DNA of 64,000 nt, taken from assembly GCA_025062275.1 (NCBI GenBank), contig JANXAP010000003.1, positions 10,950-74,949 on the forward strand, in the 5' to 3' direction. Of the stretch, positions 5,239 through 61,215 are shown piece by piece. The notes beneath the pieces were generated by a model, which saw only the letters and a list, made by a program, of their open reading frames with translations, did not search any database and was not told the origin of the DNA. Each line of letters starts with the position of its first letter. Within the stretch, counting starts at the first letter, position 1. The stretch comes from Dehalococcoidia bacterium. Its GTDB lineage: Bacteria > Chloroflexota > Dehalococcoidia > SM23-28-2 > HRBIN24. The position numbers were made by a program, and so were the translations under genes.

Positions 5239-5353
5239 GGGCCCACCCTCCTTTCGCTTGCCTCCCTTTTCTGGGCACACTCTAAAACTTAGCATTTGCT
5301 TTGTCAATGGCCCATAGCCGGGCCGTTAAGATGGACAGTGTGCAGGGGGAGAC

Positions 5354-6154: not shown

Positions 6155-6241
6155 TAGACCAGATGTTCTATAATCGCCGACTGGACTGGGGTCGCCGTGG
6201 GGACTTAACCTTGTGGATTGGCGTAGAAATGTTCTGGACAA

Positions 6242-6304: not shown

Positions 6305-6802
6305 ATGAAGGTCGTCTTCCTGGAGGAAGTGGAGGGCAAGGCCCGCGTGGGCGAGGTGCGGGAGGTGGCCGATGGCTACGCCCGCAACTACCTGTTCCCC
6401 CGCAAGCTGGCAGCCCCGGCGACGCCCCACTACATCAGCATGGCCCGGGCCAAGGCCGAGAAGGAGGCCCGCCGCCAGGCCAAGCTGGACCAGGAGGTCC
6501 GGGAGAAGGTCCTGCCCAGGCTGGAGGGGTGCACCCTGCGTATCGAGGTGCGGGTGGGCGAGCAGGGCAAGCTCTTCGGCTCCGTCACCGCCCTGGACAT
6601 CGCCGAGGCCCTCAAGGAGCAGGCCGGGGTGGAGCTGGACCACCGCCAGGTGCTGCTGTCGGAGCCTATCCGCGAGGTGGGGACCTTTCCGGTGGAGCTG
6701 AGGCTCACCCGCAACGTGCATGCCCGGGTGACGCTGGAGGTGGTGCCCCTGGGTGCCGGTGAGGCCCCTGCCGCTTCCTCTCAGGAGGGCCAAGAGGCGT
6801 GA
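6305..6802 (+). CDS. rplI: 50S ribosomal protein L9
   Basis: [36 protein letters not shown] matches the L9 N-domain. GGAGG Shine-Dalgarno upstream. Confidence 0.9.
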
Positions 6803-8223: not shown

Positions 8224-8237
8224 GAGCGAGAGCCATC

Positions 8238-31045: not shown

Positions 31046-31051
31046 TATAAT
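31046..31051 (+). promoter_or_regulatory. Consensus -10 hexamer TATAAT in AT-rich spacer upstream of infA (internal promoter candidate)
   Basis: Seen directly: gcgTATAATaaaaattt in an otherwise 68% GC region, about 45 nt before the infA ATG. Confidence 0.35.
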
Positions 31052-39509: not shown

Positions 39510-40700
39510 TCAGGCCCGCTGGGCAAGGCCCGCCGCCCGCCGCAGCTCCTCGGCCATGTCGGTGCGCTCCCAGGGCAGGTCCAGGTCGGTGCGGCCGAAG
39601 TGCCCGTAGGCAGCGATGGGACGGTAGATGGGACGCCGCAAGTCCAGCCGGCGGATGATGCCCCGTGGGCTCAGATCGAAGTGCTGCCTGACCAGCTCCA
39701 CCAGCCCGCCGTGGTCGAACTTGTGGGTGCCGAAGGTCTCCACCGAGATGGCGATGGGCTGAGGATGGCCGATGGCGTAGCACAGCTCCACCTCCACCCG
39801 GTCGGCCAGGCCCGCCGCCACCAGGTTCTTGGCCACCCAGCGGGCGGCGTAGGTGGCGGAGCGGTCCACCTTGGAGGGGTCCTTGCCCGAGAAGGACCCT
39901 CCCCCGTGGCGGGCGGCGGAGCCGTAGGTGTCCACCATCGTCTTCCGCCCCGAGAGGCCCGAGTCGGCAGCCGGGCCACCCAGCACGAAGCTGCCGCTGC
40001 GGTTGACGTGAATGTCCGTCTGGCTGTCCATCCAGTTGCCCAGCACGGGGCGGACGACGTGTTCTATGACGTCGGCGCGGATGCGTTCCTGCGTGATGGG
40101 GCCGCGGTCGTCGCGGTCATCGTGCTGGGCAGCGATGACCACCGCCGCTGCCCGCTTGGGCTCGCCGTAGGAGTACTCGATGGTGACCTGGGACTTACCG
40201 TCGGGCCGGAGGTAAGGGATGATGCCCCGCTTGCGGCACTCGGCCAGGCGCATGCACAGGCGGTGGGCCAGGACGATGGGCAGGGGCATCAGCACCTCCG
40301 TCTCGCGGCAGGCGAAGCCCACCATGATGCCCTGGTCACCGGCGCCCTCGTCCTCGCCCACGGCCTGGAAGATCTCCGGCGACTGGCGCTTGATGGCCAC
40401 GATGATGCCGCAGGAGTCGGCGTCGAAGCGGTACTCCGGGCTGGTGTATCCGATCTCGCGGATGACACGGCGGGCCACATCGTCGTAGTTGACGTAGTGC
40501 TTGGTGGTGATCTCGCCCAGGATGACGATGAGGCCGGTGGTGGCCGTCACCTCGCAGGCCACGTGGGCATCGGGGTCGTGGGCCAGGATCTCGTCCAGGA
40601 TGGCGTCGGCGATCTGATCGCAGACCTTATCGGGGTGCCCCTCCGTCACCGACTCGGCGGTCATCAGCACCGAGGGGGCGCTCATGAGGGTCAGTGCCAT
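39510..40700 (-). CDS. metK: S-adenosylmethionine synthetase
   Basis: MetK signatures [10 protein letters not shown] and GGGAFSGKD-like [16 protein letters not shown]. Confidence 0.95.
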
Positions 40701-40734
40701 GGCCCTACCTCCTGTATTTGGGGGTCTGCTCCCG

Positions 40735-42042
<1,308 letters not shown>

Positions 42043-42951
42043 TCATAATACGACCACCTCGGCCCCCAGGCTACGCCCCCGCCAGCGGGCGGCTGCCCGC
42101 CTCAGCAGGGAGAGAAGGCCGAGGGGTTCCCGCCGCAGGGCGGGCGTTTCATACAAGGTGCACTCTACCCTATATCCCAGCTTACGGTAAACCTGCACCG
42201 CCGCCGCGTTCTCCGTTTCCACCGTCAGATACACGTTAGAACAGGAACGCAGGAGTTCCTGGGTGACGGCCCCCGTCACCAGCGTGGCCAGTCCCCTCCC
42301 CCGCCAGTCGGGGTGAGTGTAGACGTTGCCCACCACCGCCACCCCCTCCTCCGGCGCGAAGACATGGGTGCCGGCAATGGCCACCAGGCGACCGGCAGCG
42401 ACGACCCCGTAATAGACGCCCTCTTCCAGGACCCGGGCCGGGTAGCTCGTGAAGCCCCCCTCAGCGCCGTAGAGGCGGTTGACGGCCCCTATCTCCCGAG
42501 GGCGCAGGCGCACCACCTGGTAGGTAGGACCCGCCGGGGGCGGCGGCCGGAAGCCATCGGCGGTGACCCCCATGCGGTACATCAGGCGCTCTCGAGAGAG
42601 GAGAAAATGGCGGCGCAGAGCGTCCAGGTGCTCGGGACGGCAGGTGGCAAAGGAGTAGCGGGGGCCAGGGTGCAGCCGCAGCCCCGCCTCCACCGCCTCC
42701 GCTTCCCCCAGGGTGAGGAGGGATGGGCCGGCGCCGCTGCGGGCGTAGAAGACGATCCCCCAGCCCCCGTCCTCGCCCTGGCAGAGGAAGAAGCGGCTGA
42801 GGGGGAAGAGACGCGGCGCCAGGTGGGCGATGGCGAAGGCGGCGTAGGGTCGCTGGGGCTCCAGGTAGGGACGCAAGGCAGAGGGGGTCGTGAGAGGTCG
42901 CACCAGGTAGGTGCGACGTGCCCTGCCCACGGGCAGCGCCGTCTCAGCCAC
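42043..42951 (-). CDS. GNAT-family acetyltransferase-domain protein
   Basis: C-terminal GNAT core HPDWRGRGLATLV...VYRKLGY. Confidence 0.6.
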   Translation of the reverse strand: MAETALPVGRARRTYLVRPLTTPSALRPYLEPQRPYAAFAIAHLAPRLFPLSRFFLCQGEDGGWGIVFYARSGAGPSLLTLGEAEAVEAGLRLHPGPRYSFATCRPEHLDALRRHFLLSRERLMYRMGVTADGFRPPPPAGPTYQVVRLRPREIGAVNRLYGAEGGFTSYPARVLEEGVYYGVVAAGRLVAIAGTHVFAPEEGVAVVGNVYTHPDWRGRGLATLVTGAVTQELLRSCSNVYLTVETENAAAVQVYRKLGYRVECTLYETPALRREPLGLLSLLRRAAARWRGRSLGAEVVVL

Positions 42952-43828
42952 CGCCGCCCCCCTCCAGGTATCTCCCGATTATAGGCCGCAGGCGCTCCTT
43001 CGTCTCTTCGGGGACCAGGTGGAAGGGGGTGATGAGGGCGTCGCGCAATGCCTCGGCGCAGGGGCAACGTCGCTCCCGCGGCAGCAGGCCCACCGCCCGC
43101 CTCACCACCGCCTGAGCGAGGCTCACGCCCTGGCGCAGGTTGGCGATGACCAGCTCCGCCGTCACGTCCGCCTCCCGCGGGTGCCACACGTCGTAGTCGG
43201 TGACCACGGCCAGGGTGGCGTAACACATCTCGGCCTCCCGTGCCAGCCGCGCCTCGGGCAGGGCCGTCATGCCGATGAGGTGAGCGCCCCATGAGCGGTA
43301 GAGCTGCGACTCGGCGCGGGTGGAGAAGGCGGGGCCCTCGATGACCACGTAGGTGCCGCCGTCGTGCACCGTTGCCCCTGCCTCCCGCGCCGCCGTCACC
43401 AGGGCACGCCGCAAGACCGGACAGAAGGGGTCGGCGAAGGCGATGTGGGCCACCAGCCCTCCGCCGAAGAAGGTGCCCGGCCGCCCCCGCGTGCGGTCTA
43501 TGAGCTGGTCCGGCACCGCCAGGTGCAGGGGGGCATAGTCCTCGTGCAGCGAGCCCACGGCGCTGACGCCGATGACCACCTCCACCCCCAGGAGCTTCAG
43601 GGCATAGATGTTGGCCCTGCTGGGCACCTCCGCCGGCAGCAACCGGTGGCCACGACCGTGCCGGGGCAGGAAGGCCACCCGTTCCCCGTCCAGGGTGCCG
43701 ATGACGATGTCGTCGGAAGGCGGGCCGAAGGGCGTCTCCAGCCGCACCTCCTCCAGCCCGCCGATGCCCTCCATCTCGTAGAAGCCGCTGCCGCCGATGA
43801 CGGCTACGCGGGCCTTCGCCTCAGCCAT
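42944..43828 (-). CDS. mtnP: S-methyl-5'-thioadenosine phosphorylase
   Basis: PNP/MTAP family (VAVIGGSGFYE ... RANIYALKLLGVE ... MTALPEARLAREAEMCYATLAVVTDYD). Start at MAEAKARV inside the longer track ORF. Confidence 0.88.
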   Translation of the reverse strand: MAEAKARVAVIGGSGFYEMEGIGGLEEVRLETPFGPPSDDIVIGTLDGERVAFLPRHGRGHRLLPAEVPSRANIYALKLLGVEVVIGVSAVGSLHEDYAPLHLAVPDQLIDRTRGRPGTFFGGGLVAHIAFADPFCPVLRRALVTAAREAGATVHDGGTYVVIEGPAFSTRAESQLYRSWGAHLIGMTALPEARLAREAEMCYATLAVVTDYDVWHPREADVTAELVIANLRQGVSLAQAVVRRAVGLLPRERRCPCAEALRDALITPFHLVPEETKERLRPIIGRYLEGGGGG

Positions 43829-44864
43829 GCTCTTTACCTCCGCAGAGGAGCTGGGGCAGCGACTCGGCATAGGGGGGTCTCGCGATGCCCCGCTCGGTGA
43901 CGATGGCATCCACGCAGGCGGCCGGCGTCACGTCGAAGGCCCAGTTGAGGACGTCCACCCCCTCGGGGGCGAGGGCCACCCCGCCCACCCTCCGCACCTC
44001 CTCCGCCGGCCGCTCCTCGATGGGAATGCGGGAGCCGTCGGGCGTGGAGAGGTCGAGGGTGCTGGTGGGGGCGGCGACGTAGAAGGGGACGCCGTGGGCG
44101 CGGGCCAGGACGGCCAGGGCGTAGGTGCCCACCTTGTTGGCCACGTCACCGTTACGGGCGATGCGGTCGGCCCCCACCACCACCGCGTCCAGCCGCTGGC
44201 GGGCCATGAGGGCAGCCGCCGCTCCGTCGACGATGAGGGTGCAGGGGATGCCCTCCCGCCATAGCTCCCAGGCGGTGAGGCGGGCGCCCTGCAGGAGAGG
44301 ACGAGTCTCGGTAGCGTAGACGCGCGACAGCCGTCCCGTCCGCCAGGCCACGCGCAGGATGCCCAGGGCGGTGCCCAGGCCACCGGTGGCCAGGGCGCCG
44401 GTATTGCAGTGGGTGAGGACGACGGCCCCCGTGGGCAAGAGCGACGCCCCCAGCTCCGAGAGACGCTGGTCGGCCTCCACCTGCTCCCGGTGCAGCGCTC
44501 GGGCCTCCTCCTCCAGGGCCTCCGTCGCCTCATCGGGAGACGCGCAGGTCCGGGCGCGCCCGAGGAGGCGCTCCAGTGCCCAGGAAAGGTTGACCGCCGT
44601 GGGGCGGGTGGAGGCCAGCTCCCCGGCCGCCTCCTCGAGGCCCGCTAGGAAGCCCGCCATGTCCCTGCCCCGGAGGCTGCGGGCGGCCAGCACCAGACCG
44701 TAAGCGGCAGCGATGCCTATGAGGGGAGCGCCCCGCACCCGCAACGAGCGGATGGCCTCCGCCACTGCGCGGTGATCGCGGGCCACCAGGTATCGCTCCC
44801 GGGCAGGCAGAAGGGTCTGGTCCAGCAGGCGCAGGCCCTCTCTCGACCAGGCGATAGCCTTCAT
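43821..44864 (-). CDS. mtnA: S-methyl-5-thioribose-1-phosphate isomerase
   Basis: eIF2B-related MtnA (VRGAPLIGIAAAYGL ... TGALATGGLGTALG). Start at MKAIAW. Confidence 0.88.
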   Translation of the reverse strand: MKAIAWSREGLRLLDQTLLPARERYLVARDHRAVAEAIRSLRVRGAPLIGIAAAYGLVLAARSLRGRDMAGFLAGLEEAAGELASTRPTAVNLSWALERLLGRARTCASPDEATEALEEEARALHREQVEADQRLSELGASLLPTGAVVLTHCNTGALATGGLGTALGILRVAWRTGRLSRVYATETRPLLQGARLTAWELWREGIPCTLIVDGAAAALMARQRLDAVVVGADRIARNGDVANKVGTYALAVLARAHGVPFYVAAPTSTLDLSTPDGSRIPIEERPAEEVRRVGGVALAPEGVDVLNWAFDVTPAACVDAIVTERGIARPPYAESLPQLLCGGKEHG

Positions 44865-44909
44865 GCCTAGGCTGCCTCCGCCTTCCATGCTATCAGAAGG
44901 GTGGACGCC

Positions 44910-48286: not shown

Positions 48287-48427
48287 CCTCTCGCCTCGGC
48301 AAGCCTATGCTATCCTCCCGCGGCGGGGACGTCCACCTGCTGCGATACTTGACTTACTCCATCGATAAAGTCCACAATTGGGACATGCCCCTCCGTGGAG
48401 GCCGACCGACCAGGAGGTGAACCGACC

Positions 48428-49813
48428 ATGGCGCTTTTCCGACCCGACCCCACCTTCTACCCTTCGCCGCGGCTGGCCATGCAGGCCCCGCCCGAGACCC
48501 TGGCCTATGTGGCCCTGCTGAATGTAGGCAACGGCCGCCCCGATGCCCTGGCCGTGGTGGACGTGGACCCCAGGTCGTCCAGCTATGGCCAGGTCGTCGA
48601 CCGGCTGGAGCTGCCCAACGTGGGCGACGAGCTGCACCACTTCGGCTGGAACGCCTGCTCCTCGGCCCTGTGCCCCCACATGCCCCATCCCCACCTGGAG
48701 CGGCGTTACCTGCTGGTGCCTGGCCTGCGCTCCTCCCGCATCTACGTGGTGGACACGCGGCCCGACCCCGCCAGGCCGCGCATCGTCAAGACCATCGAGC
48801 CCGAGGAGGTCAAGGGGCGGGCAGGCTACTCCCGCCTGCACACCGTCCACTGCGGCCTGGACGGCATCTACATCTCGGCCCTGGGCGGGGCCGACGGCGA
48901 CGGCCCCGGCGGCATCCTGGTGCTGGACCACGACACCTTCGAGGTGCTGGGCCGCTGGGAGATCGACCGTGGCGACCAGTTCCTGGCCTACGACTTCTGG
49001 TGGCACCTGGCCCACGACGTGGTGGTGACCAGCGAGTGGGCCACCCCCGATCTGTTCGAGAACGGCCTGCGGCTGGAAGACCTGGTGGGGCGCCGCTTCG
49101 GCCACCGCCTCCACTTCTGGGACGCGCGCCGACGCAAGAAGGTGGCCACCGTCGACTTCGGCGACGAGCACCAGATGGTGCTGGAACTGCGTCCTGCCCA
49201 CGACCCCACCAAGACCTACGGCTTCGTCAACGTGGTGGTGAACGTCAACGACCTGTCCAGCTCCATCTGGGTCTGGCACCGAGACAACGGCTCCTGGGCG
49301 GCGCGCAAGGTCATCGAGATCCCCGCCCAGCCGGCCGATAAGGACAAGCTGCCGCCGGCCCTCCAGGACGTGGGCGCGGTGCCGCCCCTGGTCACCGACA
49401 TCAACCTGTCCCTGGACGACCGCTTCCTCTACGTGTCCTGCTGGGGCACCGGCGAGCTGCGCCAGTACGACGTCAGCGACCCCTTCAGTCCCAAGCTGGT
49501 TTCCACCGTGAAGCTGGGCGGCATCGTCGACCCCGGCGCCCACCCTGCCGGCCACGTCCTGACGGGCGGCCCGCAGATGGTGGAGGTCTCCCGCGATGGC
49601 CGCCGCGTCTACGTCACCAACTCCCTCTACAGCTCCTGGGACGTCCAGTTCTATCCGCAGGGCCTCAGGGGCTGGCTGGTGAAGCTGGACGTGGGCGCCG
49701 AGGGGGGCATGGAGGTGGACAGGGACTTCTTCGTGGACTTCGGCGAGGCGCGGGCCCACCAGGTGCGGCTGCTGGGCGGCGACGCTTCGTCCGACTCCTT
49801 CTGCTATCCGTAG
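48428..49813 (+). CDS. Selenium-binding protein SBP56 family (methanethiol-oxidase-like), cytoplasmic form
   Basis: Aligns with human SELENBP1 along its length (ATVDVDP...DELHHFGWNACSS...SSRIYVVD...ITDINLSLDDRFLYVSCWGTGELRQYD...GGPQMVEVSRDGRRVYVTNSLYSSWDVQFYP...GGDASSD). No signal peptide. AGGAGGTGA Shine-Dalgarno before ATG 48428. Confidence 0.9.
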   Translation: MALFRPDPTFYPSPRLAMQAPPETLAYVALLNVGNGRPDALAVVDVDPRSSSYGQVVDRLELPNVGDELHHFGWNACSSALCPHMPHPHLERRYLLVPGLRSSRIYVVDTRPDPARPRIVKTIEPEEVKGRAGYSRLHTVHCGLDGIYISALGGADGDGPGGILVLDHDTFEVLGRWEIDRGDQFLAYDFWWHLAHDVVVTSEWATPDLFENGLRLEDLVGRRFGHRLHFWDARRRKKVATVDFGDEHQMVLELRPAHDPTKTYGFVNVVVNVNDLSSSIWVWHRDNGSWAARKVIEIPAQPADKDKLPPALQDVGAVPPLVTDINLSLDDRFLYVSCWGTGELRQYDVSDPFSPKLVSTVKLGGIVDPGAHPAGHVLTGGPQMVEVSRDGRRVYVTNSLYSSWDVQFYPQGLRGWLVKLDVGAEGGMEVDRDFFVDFGEARAHQVRLLGGDASSDSFCYP

Positions 49814-50887: not shown

Positions 50888-51913
50888 CTACAGCACCAGC
50901 GGCCGTGGGCGTCGCAGGAGGCGCCAGCGAGTGTCGAAGCGCCACAGCCCCGCCTCGCGGGCGCAGGCGTAGGCCGCCGCCATCTCCTCGCTGCGGACGC
51001 GGCGGTTGATCTCGGCGTATTTGGGCTCCGTCTTCGCCTTCCAGGCCGGGTAGTACTGGTCCATGATGTTCACGTAGGTATCGGGCGAAAGCTCGCGGGC
51101 CAGGAAGCGCATGATCTCCCGCGTGTCCTCCAGGAGGCCCGGCATCACCAGGTGGCGCACCAGCACTCCCCGCAGGGCCAGGCCGTTCTCGTCCACCACC
51201 AGCTCCCCCACCTGCTCGTGCATGGCCTTCACCACCCGCCGCGCCACCTCCGGATAGTCCGGGGCCAGCAGGTACTTGCGGGCGTGCTCCCGCTGCCACA
51301 GCTTGAAGTCGGGCATGTAGATGTCCACCACGCCCTCCATCAGGCGGATGGAGTGCAGGGAGTCGTAGGAGCTGGTGTTGTAGACGATGGGCAGGCGCAG
51401 GCCCATCTCGATGGCGTAGGGCAGCGCCTCCAGCACCTGGGGCACCACGTGCTCGGGAGTGACGAAGTTGATGTTGTGGCAGCCCATCTCCTGCAGGCGG
51501 AGCATGATGCGGGCCAGGTCCCGCGGCGATACCTCTTCACCCTCACCGATCTGGCTCACCTCGAAGTTCTGGCAGAAGACGCAACGCAGGTTGCACCAGG
51601 AGAAGAAGATGGTGCCCGAGCCGCGCCAGCCCCGCAGCACGTCCTCCTCGCCGAAGTGGGGAAAGAAGGAGGCGACACGGGCGTAGCGCCCCACCCTGCA
51701 CACGCCGAAGCGGTCGTGGAGCCGGTCCACGTGGCAGTCGCGGGGGCAGACGGTGCAGTCGGCCAGGGCAGCGAGGGCCTCCTCCACCTTCTCCTTCAGG
51801 CGTCCCTCCTCATAGGTCTTCAGGTAGGCGGGGACGAAGTTGCGACGGGGCAGTACGAAGCGACCGTCCCCGTGCACCTCCCTGGGGATGTCGGGAGCGA
51901 TGGCGAGGACCAC
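50888..51913 (-). CDS. Radical SAM protein, PflX-like (COG1313) activating-enzyme homolog
   Basis: CNLRCVFCQN radical-SAM Cys triad plus extra N-terminal Cys cluster CTVCPRDCH...FGVCRVG. GTG start after GGAGGAGGG. Confidence 0.8.
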   Translation of the reverse strand: MVLAIAPDIPREVHGDGRFVLPRRNFVPAYLKTYEEGRLKEKVEEALAALADCTVCPRDCHVDRLHDRFGVCRVGRYARVASFFPHFGEEDVLRGWRGSGTIFFSWCNLRCVFCQNFEVSQIGEGEEVSPRDLARIMLRLQEMGCHNINFVTPEHVVPQVLEALPYAIEMGLRLPIVYNTSSYDSLHSIRLMEGVVDIYMPDFKLWQREHARKYLLAPDYPEVARRVVKAMHEQVGELVVDENGLALRGVLVRHLVMPGLLEDTREIMRFLARELSPDTYVNIMDQYYPAWKAKTEPKYAEINRRVRSEEMAAAYACAREAGLWRFDTRWRLLRRPRPLVL

Positions 51914-51915
51914 AG

Positions 51916-52845
51916 CTATCCCTCCTCCCCGGTCGGGGAGATGAAGGCCACCGCCTCGCGGGCCCGACGGACGGTGCGGCACTGAGCGCATACCTCGGCA
52001 GTGGTGGGCTCGCCGCACTCGGCGCAGGGCCGCAGGGGCGGCGGCTCGTAGATGCCGAAGAACTGGCGCCCCTTCTCCAGGAAGCCGAACAGGAGCGATT
52101 GCTTGCTGCCCGGCGACTGCCTTTCGATGAGGTTCAGGGCCTCCTTGTACAGCAGCTCCTTGGCCCCTACGGCGTGGGGGCATTCGTCCACGACGTAGTC
52201 GATGCGGCGCAGGACGGCATAGGCGGCGGTCTCCCGCTCGCCCAGGCGGTAGAGGGGCTTGATGCGCTTCACCAGGCCCTCGCGGGCGGGGAGCACCGGC
52301 GCCTGCCGCGCCAGGTAGTCCACGTTCCAGTGCAGCAGGTTGCCCAGCAGGGCTGCCGCTTCGTCGTCCAGGTTGTGGCCGGTGGCCAGCACATCGTAGC
52401 CGAGCTGGCGGGCGGTGCGGTTGAAGGTGTAGCGCTTGGTGGTGCCGCAGACGGCACAGGTGGGCCGTCGGTTGGCACGCGCCAGTTGCGGCACCGACAG
52501 CCCGTATTCCTCCTCGACGGCGACCACGTGGAGGGTGGCGCCGCGCTCCTGGGCGAAGCGCTGGCAGGCCTCCCTCGACTGCCGGGAATAGTCGCCGATT
52601 CCCAGGTCTAGGTAGAGGCCGTGGGCCTCATACCCCAGGCGCAGCAAGACGTCCCAGAGGGCCAGGGAGTCCTTGCCGCCCGAGACGGCCACCAGCACCT
52701 GCTGGCCAGGCTCCAGCATCTCCCAGTCGCGGATGGCGCGCCGCACCTGGTTCTCGAAGTAATTGAAGAAATGGTCGCGGCAGAAGGCGGAGCGGTGGCG
52801 AGGTATGTCCACCACCGCCTGGGAGCGACACACTATACACCGCAC
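51916..52845 (-). CDS. ttuA: tRNA 2-thiouridine (s2T54) synthetase TtuA-like PP-loop ATPase with N- and C-terminal zinc fingers
   Basis: CIVC...CRDH zinc finger, PP-loop SGGKDS, Fe-S Cys CAVC...ECPH, C-terminal CAEC...CAQC. Only the C-terminal 310 codons of the 565-aa track ORF are real. Confidence 0.8.
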   Translation of the reverse strand: MRCIVCRSQAVVDIPRHRSAFCRDHFFNYFENQVRRAIRDWEMLEPGQQVLVAVSGGKDSLALWDVLLRLGYEAHGLYLDLGIGDYSRQSREACQRFAQERGATLHVVAVEEEYGLSVPQLARANRRPTCAVCGTTKRYTFNRTARQLGYDVLATGHNLDDEAAALLGNLLHWNVDYLARQAPVLPAREGLVKRIKPLYRLGERETAAYAVLRRIDYVVDECPHAVGAKELLYKEALNLIERQSPGSKQSLLFGFLEKGRQFFGIYEPPPLRPCAECGEPTTAEVCAQCRTVRRAREAVAFISPTGEEG

Positions 52846-52856
52846 GGCTTCCCCCC

Positions 52857-53063
52857 TCAGCCTCCCGAGACGACGGGCCGCACCTCGATCTCGTCCTCGG
52901 GCCCCAGCACAACGTCGGGCGTGAGAAGCTCGTCGCCGCGGATGACCAGGACTGTGCCCGGGTCGATACCCAGGTGGGCCAGCACCTGAGCTACCGTGCG
53001 CCGACCGTCCAGCTCGAGGGTCTGACGCCTGGGGCCGCGGACGTGCACGCGCATCTCCCTCAC
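52857..53063 (-). CDS. ttuB: Ubiquitin-like sulfur carrier TtuB/ThiS-like (C-terminal GG)
   Basis: 68 aa ending VRPVVSGG, 11 nt upstream of ttuA on the same strand. Confidence 0.75.
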   Translation of the reverse strand: MREMRVHVRGPRRQTLELDGRRTVAQVLAHLGIDPGTVLVIRGDELLTPDVVLGPEDEIEVRPVVSGG

Positions 53064-53096: not shown

Positions 53097-54783
53097 TCAG
53101 CCGTCGCGGCGGCTGAGGCAGTCGTCGGGGAAGGGGCAGGGGAGGGAACGGAGGCGGTGGCTGAGGCGCAGGTTCTCGTCGCCGTCCACGGGGACCGCCA
53201 CCACTGCCGGCTTGCCCTGGTGGAAGGCCTCCTCCAGGACGGCTGACAGGTCGTCGTCGGGCCCCACCTGGTAGCCGAAGGCGCCGAAGGAGCGGGCGAG
53301 GGCGGCGAAGTCGGGATTGCCGAAGTCCACCCCGAAGGGGGCCTTCCCTTCCAGTTGCTGCTTCCACTTGATCATGCCGTAGGAATTGTCCTGCCAGACC
53401 AGGACCACCACCGCCAGACCCAGGCGGACGGCCGTCTCCAGCTCGGCGCAGGACATGAGGAATCCGCCATCGCCGGTGCATACCAGCACGCGGCGGTCCG
53501 GGTAGACCAGCTTGGCCGCCAGCCCCGCCGGCAGGCCGAAGCCCATGGCCGAGTAGCCGTTGGAGATGAGTACGGTGTTGGGCAGGTAAGTGGGAAAGTA
53601 GCGGCCCAGCCACAGCTTGTGGGCGCCCACATCGCTGATGAGGATGTCCTCCTCTCCCAGGGCCTGCCGGGCTGCCTGGACGAGGCGCATGGGATGCACC
53701 GGGACACCGTTTTCCACGGGCGCCGGCCGCCGCTCCCGGGCCACGAGGGCCGTCAGCTCCGCCAGCTTGCCCTGGGCCTTCTCGGAGGGCTGGTATTGGA
53801 GGACGGAGCCCAGCAGCTCCAGGCTCTCGCGAATGTCGGCCACTACCTCCACCTCGGGTCGATAGAAGCGGTCCACCTCCGAGGGTGTGTAGTCGATGTG
53901 GACGATGCGCTTGTCACAGCGGGGGTTCCAGCGCTCGGGATGGTACTCCACCTGGTCGTAGCCGACGCAGATGACGGTGTCGGCCCCGCACAGCCCGCTG
54001 GTGCACAGGTCGGCGTTGCCGGGCAGCCCCACCGGCATCAGCGACAGGGGTTCGTAGTCGGAGACCGCCCCCTTGCCCATGAAGGTGTGGGTGACGGGGA
54101 TCCCGAAGCGGCTGGCAAACCGGCGCAGCTCCATAGCGGCCTCGCGTCGCCGCACGGCGCTGTAGCCAGCCAGGATGACAGGAAAGCGGGCGCGGGCGAT
54201 GACGTCGGCGGCATGCCGCAGGGCGGTGCGGTCGGGCGATGGGCGCCGCGCCCGCCGGGGCGTCAGAGGCCGCAGGCCGTCGTCCACCTCCGCCTCCTGG
54301 ACGTCGGTGGTAAGCTCGATGTGGGTGGCCCCTGGCTTCTCCTGCTCCGCCATCCGGAAGGCCTTGCGCACCACCTCCGGGATGGTCTCGGGGCGGTGGA
54401 CGCGGATGTTCCACAGGGTTACCGCCTCGAAGATCTTGACCACGTCCACGAACTGGTGGCTCTCCTTGTGCAGCCGCTCCAGCCCGGTCTGGCCGGTGAT
54501 GGCCACCAGGGGGGCGAAGTCCAGCTGGGCATCGGCGATGCCGGTGGTCAGGTTGGTGGCCCCCGGCCCCAGGGTGGCGAGACAGACGCCCGCCTTGCCC
54601 GTCAGGCGGCCGTAGGCGTCGGCCATGAAGGCTGCCCCCTGCTCGTGGCGGGTGACGATGAAGCGTATGGAGGAGCGGGCGAGGGCGTCCATGATGTCCA
54701 GCACCTCCTCCCCCGGCACCCCGAAGACGAACTGGACGCCCTCGTTCTCCAGGCAGCGCACCAGCAGCTCGGCAGCCTTCATC
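53097..54783 (-). CDS. Thiamine-pyrophosphate enzyme of the acetolactate synthase large-subunit family (candidate 2-oxoglutarate decarboxylase or ALS-like)
   Basis: TPP motif GDGGFLM...N, N-terminal Pyr domain FGVPGEEVLDIMDAL. No adjacent small regulatory subunit. Confidence 0.8.
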
Positions 54784-54784
54784 G

Positions 54785-56182
54785 TTATTCGGCCGGCGGG
54801 AGCTGGGGGCCGCGGGCCGGCCCCACCCACACTGTCTGGATGTTGACGAACTCGCGGATGCCGAACACCGACAGTTCGCGTCCGTAGCCGCTGCGCTTGA
54901 CGCCGCCGAAGGGAAGCCTCGGGTCGGAGGCCACCATGCCGTTGACGAAGACGTTTCCGGCCTCGATCTCGGCCGCCAGGGCCTGACCTCGCTCGGGGTC
55001 GCCCGTCCAGATGGCGGCACCCAGGCCGTAAGGAGACAGGTTGGCCAGGCGGACCGCCTCGCCCGCGTCCCGCGCCCGCACCAGGGCCGCCACCGGGCCG
55101 AAGGTCTCCTCCCGGAAGGCGGGCATCTCGGGCGTCACATCGGCCAGGACGGTGGGGGCGTAGAAGTAGCCTCTGCCTTCCAGCTTGTGGCCTCCCAGCA
55201 GCAGGCGGGCGCCCATGTCCAGGGAGCGGCGCACCTGCCGGTCCAGCTCCTCCCGCAGGTCGCTCCGGGCCAGGGGGCCGATGTTGGTGGCCGGGTCCAG
55301 GGGGTCGCCCACCCTCAGGGACCTCACCGCCTCCACCAACAGCTCGCTGAAGCGCTCCGCCACCGGCTCCTCGACGATGAAGCGCTTGGCGGCGATGCAG
55401 CTCTGGCCGTTGTTCTGGTTGCGGGCGCGGGCGCCCACCCTGGCCGCCTCCTCCAGGTCGGCGTCGGCCAGGACTATGAAGGGGTCGGAGCCGCCCAGCT
55501 CCAGCACCGTCTTCTTCAGGTGCTGACCGGCGGCCGCGGCCACCTTGGCGCCGGTGGCGTCGGAGCCGGTGAGGGTCACCGCCCGCACCCGCTCGTCGGC
55601 GATGACCCCTTCCACCGCCGCTGCCGGCAGAAGGAGGGTCTGGAAGACGCCCTCGGGGAACCCCGCCGCGCGAAAGACCTCCTCGATGGCCAGGGCGCAC
55701 TGGGGGACGTTGGAGGCGTGCTTCAACAGCAAGGTGTTGCCGGCCATGAGGGCCGGGGCAGCCGCCCGCAACACCTGCCAGAAAGGGAAGTTCCAGGGCA
55801 TGATGGCCAGCACCGGCCCCAGGGGGACGAACTGCACGTAGCTGCGGGTGGCGTTGGTCTCCACCTCCTGGGGCGCCAGGAAGCGGGCGGCGTTGTCGGC
55901 GAAGTAGTCGCAGCACCAGGCGCACTTGAGGACTTCCGCCTCGGCCTCGACGATGGGCTTGCCCATCTCCAGGGTGATGAGGCGGGCGTAGCGGTCCTTC
56001 TGTTGGCGCAGGTGCCTGGCAGCCGCCCGCATCAGCTCCCCTCGCCGCTCCAGGGGAAGGCGACGCCAGTCCTGATAGGCGCGCCAGGAACGCTCCAGGG
56101 CGGACTCCACCTGCTGGGGGCTGTGCTCTTCGAAGGTGGCGAGAACTTCTTCAGTAGCGGGGTTCCGGGAGACGAAGGCCAC
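54785..56182 (-). CDS. NAD(P)-dependent succinate-semialdehyde dehydrogenase-like aldehyde dehydrogenase
   Basis: ALDH catalytic Cys region NQNNGQSCIAAKR, Glu motif LELGGSDP. 1-nt gap to the downstream TPP enzyme gene. Confidence 0.85.
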   Translation of the reverse strand: MAFVSRNPATEEVLATFEEHSPQQVESALERSWRAYQDWRRLPLERRGELMRAAARHLRQQKDRYARLITLEMGKPIVEAEAEVLKCAWCCDYFADNAARFLAPQEVETNATRSYVQFVPLGPVLAIMPWNFPFWQVLRAAAPALMAGNTLLLKHASNVPQCALAIEEVFRAAGFPEGVFQTLLLPAAAVEGVIADERVRAVTLTGSDATGAKVAAAAGQHLKKTVLELGGSDPFIVLADADLEEAARVGARARNQNNGQSCIAAKRFIVEEPVAERFSELLVEAVRSLRVGDPLDPATNIGPLARSDLREELDRQVRRSLDMGARLLLGGHKLEGRGYFYAPTVLADVTPEMPAFREETFGPVAALVRARDAGEAVRLANLSPYGLGAAIWTGDPERGQALAAEIEAGNVFVNGMVASDPRLPFGGVKRSGYGRELSVFGIREFVNIQTVWVGPARGPQLPPAE

Positions 56183-56265
56183 GGCTGTCCACCCCCTCCT
56201 GCCGTTCCATTATACCCCCCCACCCCTCCCTGGCCCCGCTATGGCGCCGCGGGAGAGGGCCACCG

Positions 56266-56844
56266 CTAGGTCTCTCGGTCTCCCTTGCGCAGGCGCCCCA
56301 TGAGGCGGCCTAAAGAGGAGCGGGCCGCCTCCGCCGCCAGCGATATGCCGGAGATAGGCTCGCCGCTCTTGGGTGGCGCCCCGGCCTCGGGGTTCTCCAG
56401 TTGCTGCTTGACGCAGGCCACGAACTGCCGGAAGAGCTGTCGCGACACGTCCTGGACCATGCCCCGGCCGAACTGCATCAGCCTGCCCACCACATCGATG
56501 TCGGCCGTGACCTCCACCTCGGTGGCCGAGTCGGACAGGGGGCGGACGCGGGCCTGCAGGGTGGCGCGGGCGCTGCCGCTCCCGGCCGACTCTTTCCCCT
56601 GGGCCAGCATGCGCACCAGCCCGGCTGCCTCGTCCACCTCCTCTAGGTGGGCCTGGCCCGAGTAGCTGGCGGTGATCATGCCCACCTTCACCCTTACGTT
56701 GCCCTTGAAGGTGCGGTCGTCCACCACCTCGGTCAGCTGGGCGCCGGGGGCGCAGGCAACTACTTTGTGAGGGTCCAGCAGGAAGGCCCAGACTCGCTCC
56801 TTGGGCGCCTCTACCTGGAACTTCTCCTCGATGCGGATGGCCAA
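56266..56844 (-). CDS. SRPBCC-family protein CoxG-like
   Basis: CoxG/SRPBCC N-terminus MAIRIEEKFQVEAPKERVWAFLLDPHKVVACAPGAQL. Confidence 0.7.
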   Translation of the reverse strand: MAIRIEEKFQVEAPKERVWAFLLDPHKVVACAPGAQLTEVVDDRTFKGNVRVKVGMITASYSGQAHLEEVDEAAGLVRMLAQGKESAGSGSARATLQARVRPLSDSATEVEVTADIDVVGRLMQFGRGMVQDVSRQLFRQFVACVKQQLENPEAGAPPKSGEPISGISLAAEAARSSLGRLMGRLRKGDRET

Positions 56845-57031
56845 ATCCTCACCTCCTGGATGGCATGGTCGGTGCGCCGGCGAGGGGCCAGCCCTGTCGC
56901 CGCCGCCGAGCGGTGGGGGGCCTTCGCCCCGGGAGCCAGGCCACAGACACGTCCCATCATCCCACAGCGGGGGCTAGGGTCAACGACGACGGCCGTGGTG
57001 GCTCCGGCCCGCCGTCTCCGGCCCCACTACC

Positions 57032-58501
57032 TCAGAGGAGCCGCTGGGCTGCCCGTCTCAGCTCCGCACGGAAATCGGGATGGGCGATAGCGATGAGCTC
57101 CTCCGCCCGCTGGCGATGGTTCTTGCCCATGAGCCTGGCCACCCCGTATTCGGTTATGACGGTGTCGGCGAAGAAGCGCGGGATGGTGATGAGAGACCCC
57201 TCCTCGTGCTTGGCCACGATGCGGGAGACGGTGCCGTTGAGGGCGGTGGACAGGAGGAGGGTGATGGCCCGGCCGCCGCGGGAGAGGACGGCCCCGATGT
57301 GGGCCTCGGGCTGCCCGCCGGTGCCGTTGATCATGCGGGAGCCGAAGACGCTCTCGGAGTTGATCTGGCCCAACAGGTCGATGGAAAGGGCGTTGTTGAT
57401 GGCGTAAAGGTTGTCCAGGCGCGAGAGGTTGCGCAGGTCTAGGACGTACTCGGCGTCGTAGACCTCGAAGGCGGGGTTCTCCACCACCATGGCCAGCTCG
57501 CGGCCGGTGAGGCCGGACCAGGCGGCAGCCACAGCCTTGCCTGTGTGCAAGGTCTTGCGACGGCCGGTCGCGATGCCCCGCTCTACCAGCTCGGCCATGC
57601 CCGGACACGACATCTCGGTGTGGATGCCCAGGTCATGCTTGCGGTCGAAGGCGCCGGCCTTGACCATGAACATGCTCGGCTCGCCGATGCCGATCTGGAG
57701 GGTGGCACCGTCGGGCACTATCTCGCTGAGGTAGCCGGCGATGGTCTGACACTCGGGGCCGGGCTCGCGCATGAGGAGGGCCGTCTTGATGGACTCGGCC
57801 GGCAGCTGGCGAGCGATGCCGGCCCGTAGCGCCAGCACATGTTCCGGGCCGATCTGTTCTATGGAGTCCACCAGCGCCTCGTAGTCGGCCCGCAGGGCAG
57901 GGTCGGGTATCTGCTGTAGCCAGCCCTTCACAACTTCCTTGGTCAGCTCCACGGTCGGCACTTCCACGAATACGTCGATGTCGGACACGTGTACGTAGTT
58001 CTCGCCGTACATGGGGCGGATGCCGGCGTCCACCTCGGCGATGACGGTCTTGGCCCGCCTCAGGTAGCTGCGCTTGTTCCAGTGATGGGGGCCGAAGTAG
58101 ACCCTCCCCTGCTCGTCGGGGGGCGAGACCGTCACCAGGGCCACATCTATGGGCCGCGCCTCGGGACGGCCCTCGTCCAGGGGCTTGAACTGGGTGGTGA
58201 ACAGGTTTGGGAGGTAGGTGACCCTCCCGTCGTCGTGGGCCTCGCGGGCCACGTTGCCGATGAACAGCTCTATCTCCACCGTGAACAGGTGCTGCAGCCC
58301 CGGCTGCAGCCAGCCAGGGTCGCTGGTGGGGGCCGACAGGCGCACCTCCAGGCCCCCCAGCTCTTGCCCACGGCGAAAGACGGCCTCGGGCAGGACTCTC
58401 GGGCCGGCCAGCGGCACCACCACCCTGTGCCCCGGCCGGACACGGCTGACCGCCTCGTCCACCGATGCGAGCTTACGCTTGTATTCCTCGCGCCAGTCCA
58501 T
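57032..58501 (-). CDS. Acetyl-CoA hydrolase/transferase family CoA-transferase (4-hydroxybutyrate or succinyl-CoA:acetate CoA-transferase-like)
   Basis: 489 aa with family-wide similarity (MDWREEYKRKLASVDEAVSRVRPGHRVVV ... GIGEPS ... GTGGQ). Confidence 0.8.
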   Translation of the reverse strand: MDWREEYKRKLASVDEAVSRVRPGHRVVVPLAGPRVLPEAVFRRGQELGGLEVRLSAPTSDPGWLQPGLQHLFTVEIELFIGNVAREAHDDGRVTYLPNLFTTQFKPLDEGRPEARPIDVALVTVSPPDEQGRVYFGPHHWNKRSYLRRAKTVIAEVDAGIRPMYGENYVHVSDIDVFVEVPTVELTKEVVKGWLQQIPDPALRADYEALVDSIEQIGPEHVLALRAGIARQLPAESIKTALLMREPGPECQTIAGYLSEIVPDGATLQIGIGEPSMFMVKAGAFDRKHDLGIHTEMSCPGMAELVERGIATGRRKTLHTGKAVAAAWSGLTGRELAMVVENPAFEVYDAEYVLDLRNLSRLDNLYAINNALSIDLLGQINSESVFGSRMINGTGGQPEAHIGAVLSRGGRAITLLLSTALNGTVSRIVAKHEEGSLITIPRFFADTVITEYGVARLMGKNHRQRAEELIAIAHPDFRAELRRAAQRLL

Positions 58502-58592: not shown

Positions 58593-59114
58593 CTAGCGGG
58601 AGCGGCGGCGGAAGCGGACGGGCATGTGCTTGATGCCGCTGACGAAATTGGAGCGGAGCCACTCCACCGGCCCCACCACCTCCACGTCGTAGGGGCGCGA
58701 CAGCAGCTCCTCGAACAGCACCCGCGCCTCCAGCCGCGCCAGAGAGGCACCCAGGCAGAAGTGGGGGCCGCCCGCCCCGAACGCCACATGGTCGTTGGGC
58801 TGACGGGTGACGATGAAGGCGTCAGGGTCGGGAAAGACGTCCTCGTCCCGGTTGGCCGAGACGTACCACATGGTCACCCGGTCGCCAGCCTTCATGGGCA
58901 CGCCGCGCACTTCCGTGTCTCGGGTGACGATGCGCGCCATGTACATGACGGGCGAGACGTAGCGGAGCATCTCCTCCACTGCCGTGGGCACCAGCGAGAG
59001 GTCGCTGCGCAGCAGCTCCATCTGCTCCGGGTGCTCCGTCAGGGCCAAGAGGCCGCCCGAGATGAGGTTGCGGGTGGTCTCGTTGCCCGCCACCGTCAGC
59101 AGCACGAACTGGGC
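58593..59114. repeat. Dispersed repeat copy B (P450 3' half)
   Basis: See copy A. Confidence 0.85.
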
Positions 59115-59852
59115 GAACCGCTCCAGATCGCTCAGCCTCTCGCCGTCCACCTCGGCGTTCAGGTACACCGTCACCAGGTCTTCCTTCGGCTCGCGCATTC
59201 GCTCCTCTTCCAGCCGCCGAAGGTAAGAGGCCATCGCGGCGATGGTGTTCTCGGAGCGACGGACGAACTGCTGCGGCGCCGGAGCCGCCTCGGCCTCGGT
59301 CGTTCCGGCACGGCTGTACTCGGGGTCCATGGCGCCGATCAGGGCGTTGCTCCATTCAAAGATGAGGTGTCGGTCCTCTTTGGGAACGCCGATGAAGCGG
59401 GCGATGACCAGGAGGGGTAGCTGGGACGATACCTCGGTGACGAAGTCGCACTCACCCTTGGCGATGGCGCTGTCCAACAACTCGTTCACGATCTCGCGGA
59501 TGTCGGGCTCGAGGAGGCTTATCATGCGCGGCGTGAACCCGGGGCTCACGAGACGCCGCAGTTTGGTGTGCCGGGGCGGGTCCGTGGTCACCATCATGGG
59601 GAACTGGTTGGGGCTCACGATGGATTCCAGGGTGATACCCCTGGACGAGGAGAAGGTAGACGTGTTCATGGAGACCTTCACCAGGTCCTCGTACTTGGTG
59701 AGAACCCAGAAGCCTCCCGCGACGGGGTCGGGATGCCAGTAGACGGGAGCCTGCTGGCGCAGGACCTTGAAAAGGTGATGGGGCGGCCCCGAAAGGAAGA
59801 CGTCCAGGTCCAGGAGGTTGACGTCCTTCAGCTCGGTCGTCATCGGTCTCAC
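58593..59852 (-). CDS. Cytochrome P450 (copy 2, paralog of 3970..5238)
   Basis: Same heme loop FGAGGPHFCLGASLA. C-terminal 150 aa is about 97% identical to copy 1, N-terminal half about 70%. Start at M1 or at MTTELKDV (59843). Confidence 0.9.
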   Translation of the reverse strand: MRPMTTELKDVNLLDLDVFLSGPPHHLFKVLRQQAPVYWHPDPVAGGFWVLTKYEDLVKVSMNTSTFSSSRGITLESIVSPNQFPMMVTTDPPRHTKLRRLVSPGFTPRMISLLEPDIREIVNELLDSAIAKGECDFVTEVSSQLPLLVIARFIGVPKEDRHLIFEWSNALIGAMDPEYSRAGTTEAEAAPAPQQFVRRSENTIAAMASYLRRLEEERMREPKEDLVTVYLNAEVDGERLSDLERFAQFVLLTVAGNETTRNLISGGLLALTEHPEQMELLRSDLSLVPTAVEEMLRYVSPVMYMARIVTRDTEVRGVPMKAGDRVTMWYVSANRDEDVFPDPDAFIVTRQPNDHVAFGAGGPHFCLGASLARLEARVLFEELLSRPYDVEVVGPVEWLRSNFVSGIKHMPVRFRRRSR

Positions 59853-59950
59853 CTCCGCCCGTGCTGCAGCCCCCGAGGGGTCGGGAGCGACTGCTCCTCC
59901 TTCAGGATGGAGGTCGAACGCTTACCAGGATTATACAACATGACCACACC

Positions 59951-61123
59951 TCATGGCCCATCCTTGCCCACGAGGGAGGCCTGGGTGTAGGAGGGGGCGA
60001 CGCGGCCCAGGATCTCCGCTGCCTGGGCCACCATCTCCTCCAGGATCTCGCGGGCGGGGCGGATGCGGCGCAGCATGCCCGCTATCTGTCCGGCGGCGTT
60101 CATGAGCAGCTCCTTGCGCCCTGCCTGCTCGGCGGCGTAGGTGATCTGGCGGACGACCCCCATCTGGAAGGGGAAGGGCAGGGTGGGAGCGCCGGCCCTC
60201 TCCCACTCCTCGATGAGGGGGTTGGTGATGTTGCGCATGGTCTTGCCCGAGTAGATGCGGGTGACGCGGGTGTCCTCCTCGCTGGCCTCCAGGATGCGCC
60301 GCTTGAACAGGGGGTCCAGGGGCGATTCCTCGGCTACCAGGAAGGCAGTCCCGACCCAGACACCGATAGCGCCCAGGCAGAGGGCGGCTGCCAGGCCTCG
60401 GCCGTCGCCTATGCCTCCTGCCGCCACCACCGGCTTGGGGGCCACCGCGTCCACCACCTGGGGCACCAGGGCCATGGTGCCGACCCTTCCCGTGTGCCCG
60501 CCGCCCTCGTACCCCTGGGCCACCACTATATCCACCCCTGCCTCGGCCACGCGGCGGGCGTTCTTGACGTTGCCTACCAGGGACATGACCACCATGCCGG
60601 CGGCGTGCATGTCGGGCACGAAGGGGCCAGGGCTGCCCAGGCCCGAGGCGAAAACGGGCACCTTCTCCTCGATCACCACCTCCACCTTCCGCCTGATGTA
60701 ATCGGGGCTGAAGAGCTGGGGATTGCCGGCAGGAGGCGGCTGCACATCGGGGAGATTGAACTTCTGCCGGACCTCCAGGATGAACTTCTTCGTCTGCTCG
60801 GGGATGAACTGCTGGACGTCTAGGAAGCTCAACTGGGTACCGCCGGACTCCCCCTGAACCTGTCCCCATGTGGGGAAGATGAGATCGACGCCGAAGGGCT
60901 TGTCGGTGAGGTCGCGCACCTTCCGTATCTCCTGGCGCAGCTCCTCCACCGACATGGCCACGCCGCCGATGACGCCCAGGCCGCCGGCGTTGGAAACGGC
61001 CGCCACCAGCTCGGCCTTGGCCATGGTGGGACCGCCGCCGCTACCGCCCATGCCCGCCAGGATCACGGGGTATTCGATGCCCAACATGTCGCACAGTGGC
61101 GTCCGCAAGACTGGACGGGTCAT
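59951..61123 (-). CDS. Nitronate monooxygenase / FMN-dependent enoyl reductase family (NMO)
   Basis: FMN TIM-barrel motifs ILAGMGG...GVIG and QGYEGGGHTG. Confidence 0.85.
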   Translation of the reverse strand: MTRPVLRTPLCDMLGIEYPVILAGMGGSGGGPTMAKAELVAAVSNAGGLGVIGGVAMSVEELRQEIRKVRDLTDKPFGVDLIFPTWGQVQGESGGTQLSFLDVQQFIPEQTKKFILEVRQKFNLPDVQPPPAGNPQLFSPDYIRRKVEVVIEEKVPVFASGLGSPGPFVPDMHAAGMVVMSLVGNVKNARRVAEAGVDIVVAQGYEGGGHTGRVGTMALVPQVVDAVAPKPVVAAGGIGDGRGLAAALCLGAIGVWVGTAFLVAEESPLDPLFKRRILEASEEDTRVTRIYSGKTMRNITNPLIEEWERAGAPTLPFPFQMGVVRQITYAAEQAGRKELLMNAAGQIAGMLRRIRPAREILEEMVAQAAEILGRVAPSYTQASLVGKDGP

Positions 61124-61186
61124 TTCCTCACGCCTCCTACAGCGATGGCCAGTTTTTTGATAGCAGACTAAAGAATGCCTGGCCGG

Positions 61187-61215
61187 TTGTCAAGGCGTGG
61201 CAGGGCTGTTAGACT
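61187..61215 (+). promoter_or_regulatory. Sigma-70-like promoter candidate TTGTCA-N17-TAGACT upstream of the DUF1326 genes
   Basis: Seen directly. Same TAGACT -10 as the str-operon candidate. Lies in an AT-richer divergent intergenic region. Confidence 0.4.

Follow-up and report, generated by a model that had tools for sequence, protein, structure and literature searches.

An acetolactate-synthase-like enzyme encoded beside a succinate-semialdehyde dehydrogenase (SSADH) is the arrangement of a cyanobacterial bypass in the tricarboxylic acid (TCA) cycle, and the question raised by the locus described here is whether such a pair encodes the same route from 2-oxoglutarate (2-OG) to succinate in a bacterium that is not phototrophic. 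The genes lie on the minus strand of a stretch of 64,000 nucleotides, here called the window, of contig JANXAP010000003.1 from a metagenome-assembled genome (MAG) of a Dehalococcoidia bacterium (phylum Chloroflexota; GCA_025062275.1). An aldehyde dehydrogenase (ALDH) gene of ssaD type is there followed by a gene for a thiamine diphosphate (ThDP) enzyme, an ogdA-like candidate, and genes for a CoA-transferase and a CoxG-like protein precede the two. An original prediction, made from the DNA alone, had described four contiguous minus-strand genes, which was borne out by full-length family matches, and had likened the ThDP enzyme and its SSADH neighbour to the cyanobacterial 2-OG decarboxylase/SSADH arrangement, for which good support was found in family membership, phylogeny, active-site residues and cross-phylum synteny. 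In our estimate it is about 75% probable that the conserved unit is a cyanobacterial-type ssaD-ogdA module leading from 2-OG via succinic semialdehyde to succinate.

In cyanobacteria this route has been established both biochemically and genetically (PMC5160925, PMC10418658). The OgdA/SsaD bypass is encoded by SynPCC7002_A2770/A2771 (Zhang and Bryant 2011; PMC5160925). In PCC 7002 an "ogdA ssaD operon" has been documented together with the part it plays in vivo (PMC5160925), and the 2-OG decarboxylases (KGDs) of Microcystis, Synechocystis and Synechococcus have been characterised (PMC10418658).

Organization of the gene pair

The window has a G+C content of about 70%, and its list of open reading frames (ORFs) is consequently full of spurious long ORFs; real genes were picked by frame-specific G+C content at third codon positions (GC3) together with family searches (Pfam, NCBIfam and PDB). 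GC3 reached 0.86–0.92 in the coding frames of the CoA-transferase, the CoxG-like gene and the ALDH. The frame of the ThDP enzyme was missing from the GC3 list because it is nested in a long ORF at 53097–55925 (942 aa), which was rejected as a high-GC artefact; the true start is the ATG at 54782, giving a protein of 561 aa (53097–54782, minus strand) with all three TPP_enzyme domains. The ALDH (54785–56182, minus strand; 465 aa, GTG start) matched Pfam Aldedh with an E-value of 1e-142. Its stop codon TAA occupies 54787–54785 and the ATG of the ThDP gene 54782–54780, which leaves a spacer of 2 nt (CG) where 1 nt had originally been counted.

A perfect TATAAT hexamer is found in the spacer between the CoxG-like gene and the ALDH (56209–56214, minus strand, read from 56214 to 56209), about 26 nt before the GTG of the ALDH, and is followed by GGAGGGGG, a Shine-Dalgarno-like (GGAGG-like) run. 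A simple promoter/terminator scan was uninformative at the ALDH; the hexamer was seen on reading the spacer and was then tested for rarity. Five such hexamers were observed on both strands of the 64-kb window against 0.72 expected, and none of 100 shuffles reached five. The placement is suggestive, making the hexamer a candidate promoter element of the ssaD-ogdA pair.

Family and phylogeny of the ThDP enzyme

NCBIfam results for the window proteins comprised the 25 best of 53 matched models. Among its best matches, the ThDP enzyme passed the curated cut-off of a single one, NF006187 (PRK08322), with 694.6 bits against 509. It stayed below the cut-offs of both AlsS models (NF006378, 507.7 vs 510; TIGR02418, 466.7 vs 551) and far below that of the biosynthetic IlvB model (TIGR00118, 392 vs 538). 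Three cyanobacterial proteins encoded directly downstream of ssaD had NF006187 as their best model, with 859–882 bits, and NF006187 thus stands for the OgdA/KGD family, its present name being out of date. If these ssaD-adjacent cyanobacterial proteins are 2-OG decarboxylases, the equivalog name of the model, "acetolactate synthase large subunit", is probably wrong for the family. No Xsc model was present among the 25 best of the 53 matches, which leaves the sulfoacetaldehyde alternative of the original prediction unsupported as stated, and we consider it unlikely.

Over its full length the ThDP enzyme is 47–50% identical to the cyanobacterial orthologues and 54–57% identical to a group of Rokubacteria/Methylomirabilota type, compared with 35–40% for AlsS and 30–32% for E. 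coli IlvB/IlvI. A neighbour-joining tree of 36 sequences was built from Kimura-corrected p-distances with 300 bootstraps; the method works on distances, and the outgroups were few (AlsS of K. pneumoniae and of B. subtilis as rebuilt sequences, and Gcl, IlvB and IlvI of E. coli). Cyanobacterial loci were found by a genome-contig scan with the SSADH of PCC 7002, whose sequence had been rebuilt from a PDB alignment, and the cyanobacterial OgdA set consists of orthologues from other cyanobacteria (SSADH at most 68% identical to that of PCC 7002), without SynPCC7002_A2770 itself. In this tree the cyanobacterial OgdA proteins, the Rokubacteria-type proteins and the Dehalococcoidia clade of the window formed one group with 99% bootstrap support, and a grouping of the window clade with AlsS received 1%. 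AlsS was the sister group of the OgdA-family clade, IlvB/IlvI were more distant, and Gcl also fell outside. The phylogeny of the ThDP enzyme, proposed as a check in the original prediction, accordingly places it with cyanobacterial OgdA and away from IlvB/IlvI and AlsS. The identities IlvB, AlsS, Xsc, Oxc, Gcl and PoxB were all dismissed on NCBIfam scores, PDB ranking and the tree.

In public records of Dehalococcoidia MAGs and of "bacterium HR24" the protein is named "acetolactate synthase large subunit" or "Acetolactate synthase, catabolic". Taken at face value, this would make it a catabolic AlsS or an orphan large subunit of acetohydroxyacid synthase (AHAS) with an ALDH beside it by coincidence, a reading also favoured by the narrow margin of 2.3 bits by which NF006378 was missed and by the closest solved structures, which are catabolic AlsS (1ozf of K. 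pneumoniae and 4rjj of B. subtilis; full-length alignment, E 1e-105 to 1e-118). The PDB search with the ThDP enzyme returned no structure from the OgdA family and nothing closer than AlsS, with which the window enzyme shares the three-domain architecture and the lack of a regulatory subunit. It differs from AlsS, however, in carrying GxPGEE instead of GIPGAK and HKESHQ instead of K(Q/R)xHQS, in having an SSADH and not alsD as its genomic partner, and in belonging to a separate clade. The bootstrap values and the low identity to AlsS argue against an acetolactate synthase, as does the recurrence of the SSADH adjacency across phyla. No ACT-domain small subunit gene (ilvN/ilvH) adjoined the ThDP gene in the window or in the examined relatives, and neither alsD nor budC was found nearby in either; ilvN/ilvH, alsD, gabT and gad were all absent among the scanned genes of the 64-kb window, in which a ribosomal stretch at about 15–32 kb was left unscanned. 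An acetolactate synthase is in our view very unlikely.

Active-site residues of the ThDP enzyme

Residues were mapped via a cyanobacterial orthologue (L010) whose numbering equals that of the Microcystis enzyme MaKGD exactly. E50, V382, A384, H385 and K386 of MaKGD are kept in the window enzyme as E47, V385, A387, H388 and K389, and M410, the GDGG motif at 434–437, D462, Y465 and K471 are kept as M413, 437–440, D465, Y468 and K474. Mutagenesis of MaKGD has shown E50, M410, D435, D462 and Y465 to matter, while V382, H385, K386 and K471 were assigned by docking (PMC10418658). The ThDP/Mg2+ residues essential in MaKGD are all present in the window enzyme (E47, M413, D438, D465 and Y468). Docking predicted contacts of MaKGD with 2-OG at Q254, V382, K386, A408, L467 and K471 (PMC10418658), and of these V382, K386 and K471 are kept here and Q254, A408 and L467 are changed.

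The pattern also bears on an acetolactate synthase identity. At MaKGD positions 408 and 471 AlsS carries Gln, with H or A at position 386; in AHAS, position 386 holds Q and position 471 either W or Q. The window enzyme has S411 and K474 where both AlsS sequences carry Gln, glutamines that in the B. subtilis enzyme would be the active-site residues Q424 and Q487, and this Ser and Lys speak against such an activity.

The aldehyde dehydrogenase

The best PDB matches of the ALDH were the SSADH entries of Synechococcus PCC 7002 (4it9/3vz1, E 6.6e-155), to which it aligned without gaps over residues 1–453 with 52.8% identity. Of the functional residues of the PCC 7002 enzyme, C262 is the nucleophile, E228 the base and N131 catalytic; W135, R139 and S419 bind the carboxylate of succinic semialdehyde, and K154 and S157 are determinants for NADP+ (PMC7510979). 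All eight (N131, W135, R139, K154, S157, E228, C262 and S419) are identical in the window ALDH, which is predicted from these residues to favour NADP+. Public records name the protein "NAD-dependent succinate-semialdehyde dehydrogenase" or, at JGI, "succinate-semialdehyde/glutarate-semialdehyde dehydrogenase".

The second-best group of PDB matches was enterobacterial Sad/YneI (8qmq and 3efv, E 1e-138 to 1e-143). Sad/YneI of E. coli and Salmonella belongs to the same ALDH subfamily; it is a stand-alone NAD(P)+ enzyme of putrescine- and GABA-related (4-aminobutyrate) catabolism and is not known to have a ThDP decarboxylase as partner. The SsaD of cyanobacteria is nearer to the window ALDH, in which K154 and S157, the cofactor residues, are of the NADP+ type.

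Conservation of the pair

Gene order was compared in cyanobacteria, in close relatives and in metagenomes. Among cyanobacterial-type loci with enough flanking sequence, ssaD was followed by a same-strand ThDP gene in 32 of 35; the order was found in none of the 36 loci whose SSADH belongs to another phylum. ALDH followed by ThDP gene was also the order in four close relatives, and where the ThDP enzyme is 78–82% identical to that of the window, the ALDH is 79–82% identical and keeps all SSADH residues. In one relative of Rokubacteria type the SSADH orthologue is divergently transcribed (63% identity, all SSADH residues kept), and another has no SSADH gene beside the ThDP gene. A metagenome set comprised 80 loci carrying a homologue of the ThDP enzyme, 70 of which keep the H-K...K pattern. 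In 59 of the loci the upstream flank measured 1.5 kb or more, and in 18 of these 59 an SSADH-type gene lay directly upstream, 17 times on the same strand.

The likeness of the window pair to cyanobacterial OgdA/SsaD thus extends to the same two families, the same NF006187 model and the same-strand order of ssaD before ogdA, and to the ThDP and catalytic residues, both candidate substrate lysines and all SSADH functional residues. Unlike the cyanobacterial systems, the window pair comes from a non-phototrophic Chloroflexota (Dehalococcoidia) MAG lineage, is known here from sequence, is 47–50% (OgdA) and 53% (SsaD) identical to its counterparts, and has a longer C-terminus in its OgdA-like protein.

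Proposed reaction sequence

We propose that the ssaD-ogdA pair probably has a promoter to itself, with the TATAAT at 56214–56209 as -10 element, and that the two genes, which would then be co-transcribed, are probably coupled in translation across the 2-nt spacer. The ALS-like enzyme (53097–54782) would use ThDP and Mg2+ for the non-oxidative decarboxylation of 2-OG to succinic semialdehyde and CO2, and the ALDH (54785–56182) would oxidise succinic semialdehyde to succinate, probably with NADP+ as cofactor. The net reaction would be 2-OG + NADP+ + H2O -> succinate + CO2 + NADPH, a route from 2-OG to succinate that would depend neither on 2-oxoglutarate dehydrogenase (OGDH) nor on succinyl-CoA synthetase. 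Genes for OGDH, 2-OG:ferredoxin oxidoreductase (KorAB) and SucCD were absent among the scanned genes of the window, a result that does not extend to the remainder of the genome. Physiologically, the pair may serve to close the TCA cycle or act as an auxiliary route.

Several observations weigh against the assignment as an OgdA/SsaD module. The first group concerns the docking-predicted 2-OG contacts of the ThDP enzyme, where in the Dehalococcoidia subclade Q254 is replaced by Pro within a loop that has gained one residue, and where A408S, L467M and Y531G distinguish it from cyanobacterial OgdA. The 2-OG contacts K386, K471 and Q254 are themselves derived from docking and neither from mutagenesis nor from a crystal structure (PMC10418658). 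Gene order is a second point, as 41 of the 59 metagenome loci have no SSADH-type gene directly upstream. In a Chloroflexi MAG (L086, GCA_016210265.1, 725–3895) a ThDP enzyme of 67% identity is moreover followed by an ALDH of a different type, with the ThDP gene first; this ALDH is 36% identical to that of the window and carries W135N, R139H and S419R. Furthermore, the window ALDH remained below every listed NCBIfam SSADH equivalog cut-off (NF006915, 618.7 vs 730; NF010575, 544 vs 855), these equivalogs being derived from other SSADH branches. Finally, no characterised enzyme from the non-cyanobacterial branches of the OgdA family was found in the literature.

Another explanation would be that the ThDP enzyme acts on a different 2-oxo-dicarboxylate or some other 2-oxo acid, for example 2-oxoadipate to give glutarate semialdehyde, and that the ALDH oxidises the product within a catabolic or detoxifying module. 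The remodelled loop and the three substitutions would fit such a change of substrate, as would the inclusion of glutarate-semialdehyde dehydrogenase in the JGI name of the ALDH and the different ALDH type in L086. On the other hand, both lysines proposed as ligands of the substrate carboxylate are kept, the partner ALDH retains all residues that bind the carboxylate of succinic semialdehyde in the PCC 7002 structure, and of the acids assayed with characterised members of the family, 2-OG was the sole substrate (PMC10418658). We therefore regard another substrate as improbable, with the altered Q254 loop as a feature that may allow a somewhat different range of substrates. The arrangement in L086 may represent a variant of the module with another aldehyde dehydrogenase or another substrate.

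The original prediction had also offered 4-hydroxybutyrate/GABA catabolism as an alternative for the locus. As stated, this found no support, gabT, gad and a 4-hydroxybutyrate dehydrogenase gene being absent among the scanned window genes, and we consider it unlikely.

Wider relevance of the module

With a cyanobacterial-type ssaD-ogdA module as the preferred reading, the route through succinic semialdehyde would be extended to a hot-environment Chloroflexota lineage and to Rokubacteria-type genomes. It would also correct a systematic misannotation, as members of NF006187 are named acetolactate synthase and the characterised ones are 2-OG decarboxylases. Reconstructions of metabolism from MAGs would be affected in their assessment of TCA-cycle completeness and NADPH supply, and through pathways for branched-chain amino acids or acetoin that are called in error.

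More tentatively, OgdA/SsaD may be a widespread bacterial route from 2-OG to succinate, present both in Chloroflexota that are thermophilic and not phototrophic and in genomes of Rokubacteria/Methylomirabilota type, and masked there by "acetolactate synthase" annotations; in the lineage of the window it might even be the only means of closing the TCA cycle, or the Q254 loop might mark a shifted substrate range. We hold this extension to be possible but doubtful. The principle dates from 2011, when Zhang and Bryant, according to a later account (PMC12214013), already saw close relatives of these genes in some non-cyanobacterial genomes, so that the gain is incremental. The literature searched contained nothing relevant on an ssaD-ogdA module in Chloroflexi or Tepidiforma.

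The CoA-transferase and CoxG-like neighbours

The CoA-transferase gene (57032–58501, minus strand) encodes a protein of 489 aa that matched Pfam AcetylCoA_hyd_C (E 4e-46), and the CoxG-like gene (56266–56844, minus strand) one of 192 aa with a TTG start that matched Pfam COXG (E 5e-20, 72 bits). Their public names are hypothetical protein or 4-hydroxybutyrate CoA-transferase for the former and "SRPBCC family protein" for the latter. The CoA-transferase had been assigned to the AarC/4-hydroxybutyrate CoA-transferase class, of which the 4-hydroxybutyrate (AbfT/Cat2) branch holds (PDB 3eh7, E 5e-70; 3gk7, E 7.7e-50) and the AarC part does not (weak match, E 1e-10). It shares the Pfam family and a well-conserved C-terminal domain with AbfT/Cat2 (3gk7, 3eh7). 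It differs from them in some 55 extra residues (about 189–251) between the two stretches that match the solved 4-hydroxybutyrate CoA-transferases, and in a score on TIGR03948 far under the cut-off (183 vs 674.8 bits). The solved enzymes measure 434–450 aa, and the insertion is common to Chloroflexota homologues of 485–499 aa. A GTGGQ motif is present, and E296 aligns with E238 in 3gk7, a chain of AbfT from C. aminobutyricum, in which this residue is presumably the catalytic glutamate; judging from this residue, the enzyme is probably active. Genes for a 4-hydroxybutyryl-CoA dehydratase or a 4-hydroxybutyrate dehydrogenase were not found near the CoA-transferase gene.

The CoxG-like protein has a COXG/SRPBCC fold (PDB 8uds_D, E 2.6e-25). 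Among the scanned neighbours of its gene there were no genes for the molybdo-flavoprotein carbon monoxide dehydrogenase (coxMSL), and it is better called a generic SRPBCC protein, in line with its NCBI name.

The original prediction had joined these two genes and the pair into one four-gene operon, in which the CoA-transferase could supply or consume succinyl-CoA; on its 4-hydroxybutyrate/GABA alternative, the enzyme would make or use 4-hydroxybutyryl-CoA, in either case close to succinic semialdehyde. The four genes do share a strand, and their adjacency, read from consecutive accessions (MCS7275497-500; HXG42758, -60 and -61), recurs in genomes that are at least 90% identical and is confined to them. 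The CoA-transferase is also of the 4-hydroxybutyrate type with the presumed catalytic Glu intact, and 4-hydroxybutyrate metabolism runs via succinic semialdehyde in pathways of the Clostridium kluyveri type. Against this, the region upstream of the pair in the relatives with 78–82% identical ThDP enzymes holds a divergent two-component system and pst (Pho/Pst) genes, without a CoA-transferase or CoxG gene, and homologues of either were found in none of the 80 metagenome loci. Homologues of the CoA-transferase itself at 75%, 67% and 62% identity have unrelated neighbours (TatA, HMA, AP endonuclease-2, a sigma factor and others) and no CoxG. The spacers are 187 nt between CoA-transferase and CoxG-like gene and 83 nt between the latter and the ALDH, each with a promoter-like element: in the first a sigma-70-like site, TTGACC-16-GATGAT, upstream of the CoxG-like gene (56983–56956), and in the second the TATAAT of the ALDH. 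The missing 4-hydroxybutyrate dehydrogenase, gabT and gad genes count against the operon as well. It is thus left unsupported, and we judge it to be clearly unlikely.

Because neither the CoA-transferase nor the CoxG gene accompanies the pair in its relatives, because homologues of the CoA-transferase lie apart from the pair in turn and because a TATAAT precedes the ALDH, the ssaD-ogdA pair alone is a conserved functional unit. The CoA-transferase, the CoxG-like gene and a cytochrome P450 gene upstream of the CoA-transferase (58593–59852, minus strand; best models Cyp119 and SolI, under their cut-offs) are lineage-specific neighbours and probably separate transcription units. The P450 gene is in turn preceded by a nitronate monooxygenase-family gene (59951–61189, minus strand), and a second P450 is encoded in the window at 3970–5325 (minus strand). 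Nitronate monooxygenase, P450, CoA-transferase and SRPBCC protein may together form a small oxidative catabolic cluster.

Other features of the window

Directly downstream of the ogdA-like gene follow, all on the minus strand, a ThiS/TtuB-like sulfur-carrier gene (52857–53048; 63 aa in the public record of locus L081, the ORF ending in GG), ttuA of the tRNA m5U54 2-sulfurtransferase type (51916–52845; NF049949, E 5.7e-86) and a radical S-adenosylmethionine (SAM) gene (50888–51913). This order is kept in L084 and L085, at about 80% identity. The ttuB-ttuA-radical SAM genes for tRNA thiolation are thus syntenic with the pair, with no functional link apparent, and TtuA is consistent with a thermophilic host.

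Further away, a full-length SBP56 protein of the selenium-binding/methanethiol oxidase family is encoded at 48353–49813 (plus strand; Pfam E 2e-196), followed by the gene for a 221-aa protein with no Pfam family, and both also occur near the ogdA-like gene in locus L083. A methyl-cycle/methionine-salvage cluster at 39510–44909 (minus strand) comprises SAM synthetase, S-adenosylhomocysteine hydrolase, a GNAT protein, a PNP_UDP_1 protein of the methylthioadenosine phosphorylase type and an IF-2B-family (MtnA-like) isomerase; PNP_UDP_1 and IF-2B-family genes recur close to the ThDP gene of L086. At 6763–10227 (plus strand), dnaB is followed, at some distance, by a gene for a 481-aa IstB/DnaC-like AAA+ protein (IstB_IS21, E 4e-30; Bac_DnaA weaker), for which a helicase loader would be a likelier identity than an IS21 element.

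The five perfect TATAAT hexamers of the window lie at 6169–6174 (plus), 31046–31051 (plus), 42978–42983 (minus), 56209–56214 (minus) and 59930–59935 (minus). On reading the gene map, each was found just upstream of a gene in matching orientation, namely that for L9, a ribosomal-cluster gene, the GNAT gene, ssaD and the P450 gene, respectively. Their placements suggest a canonical -10 box in this Chloroflexota lineage, which would be of use for mapping transcription units.

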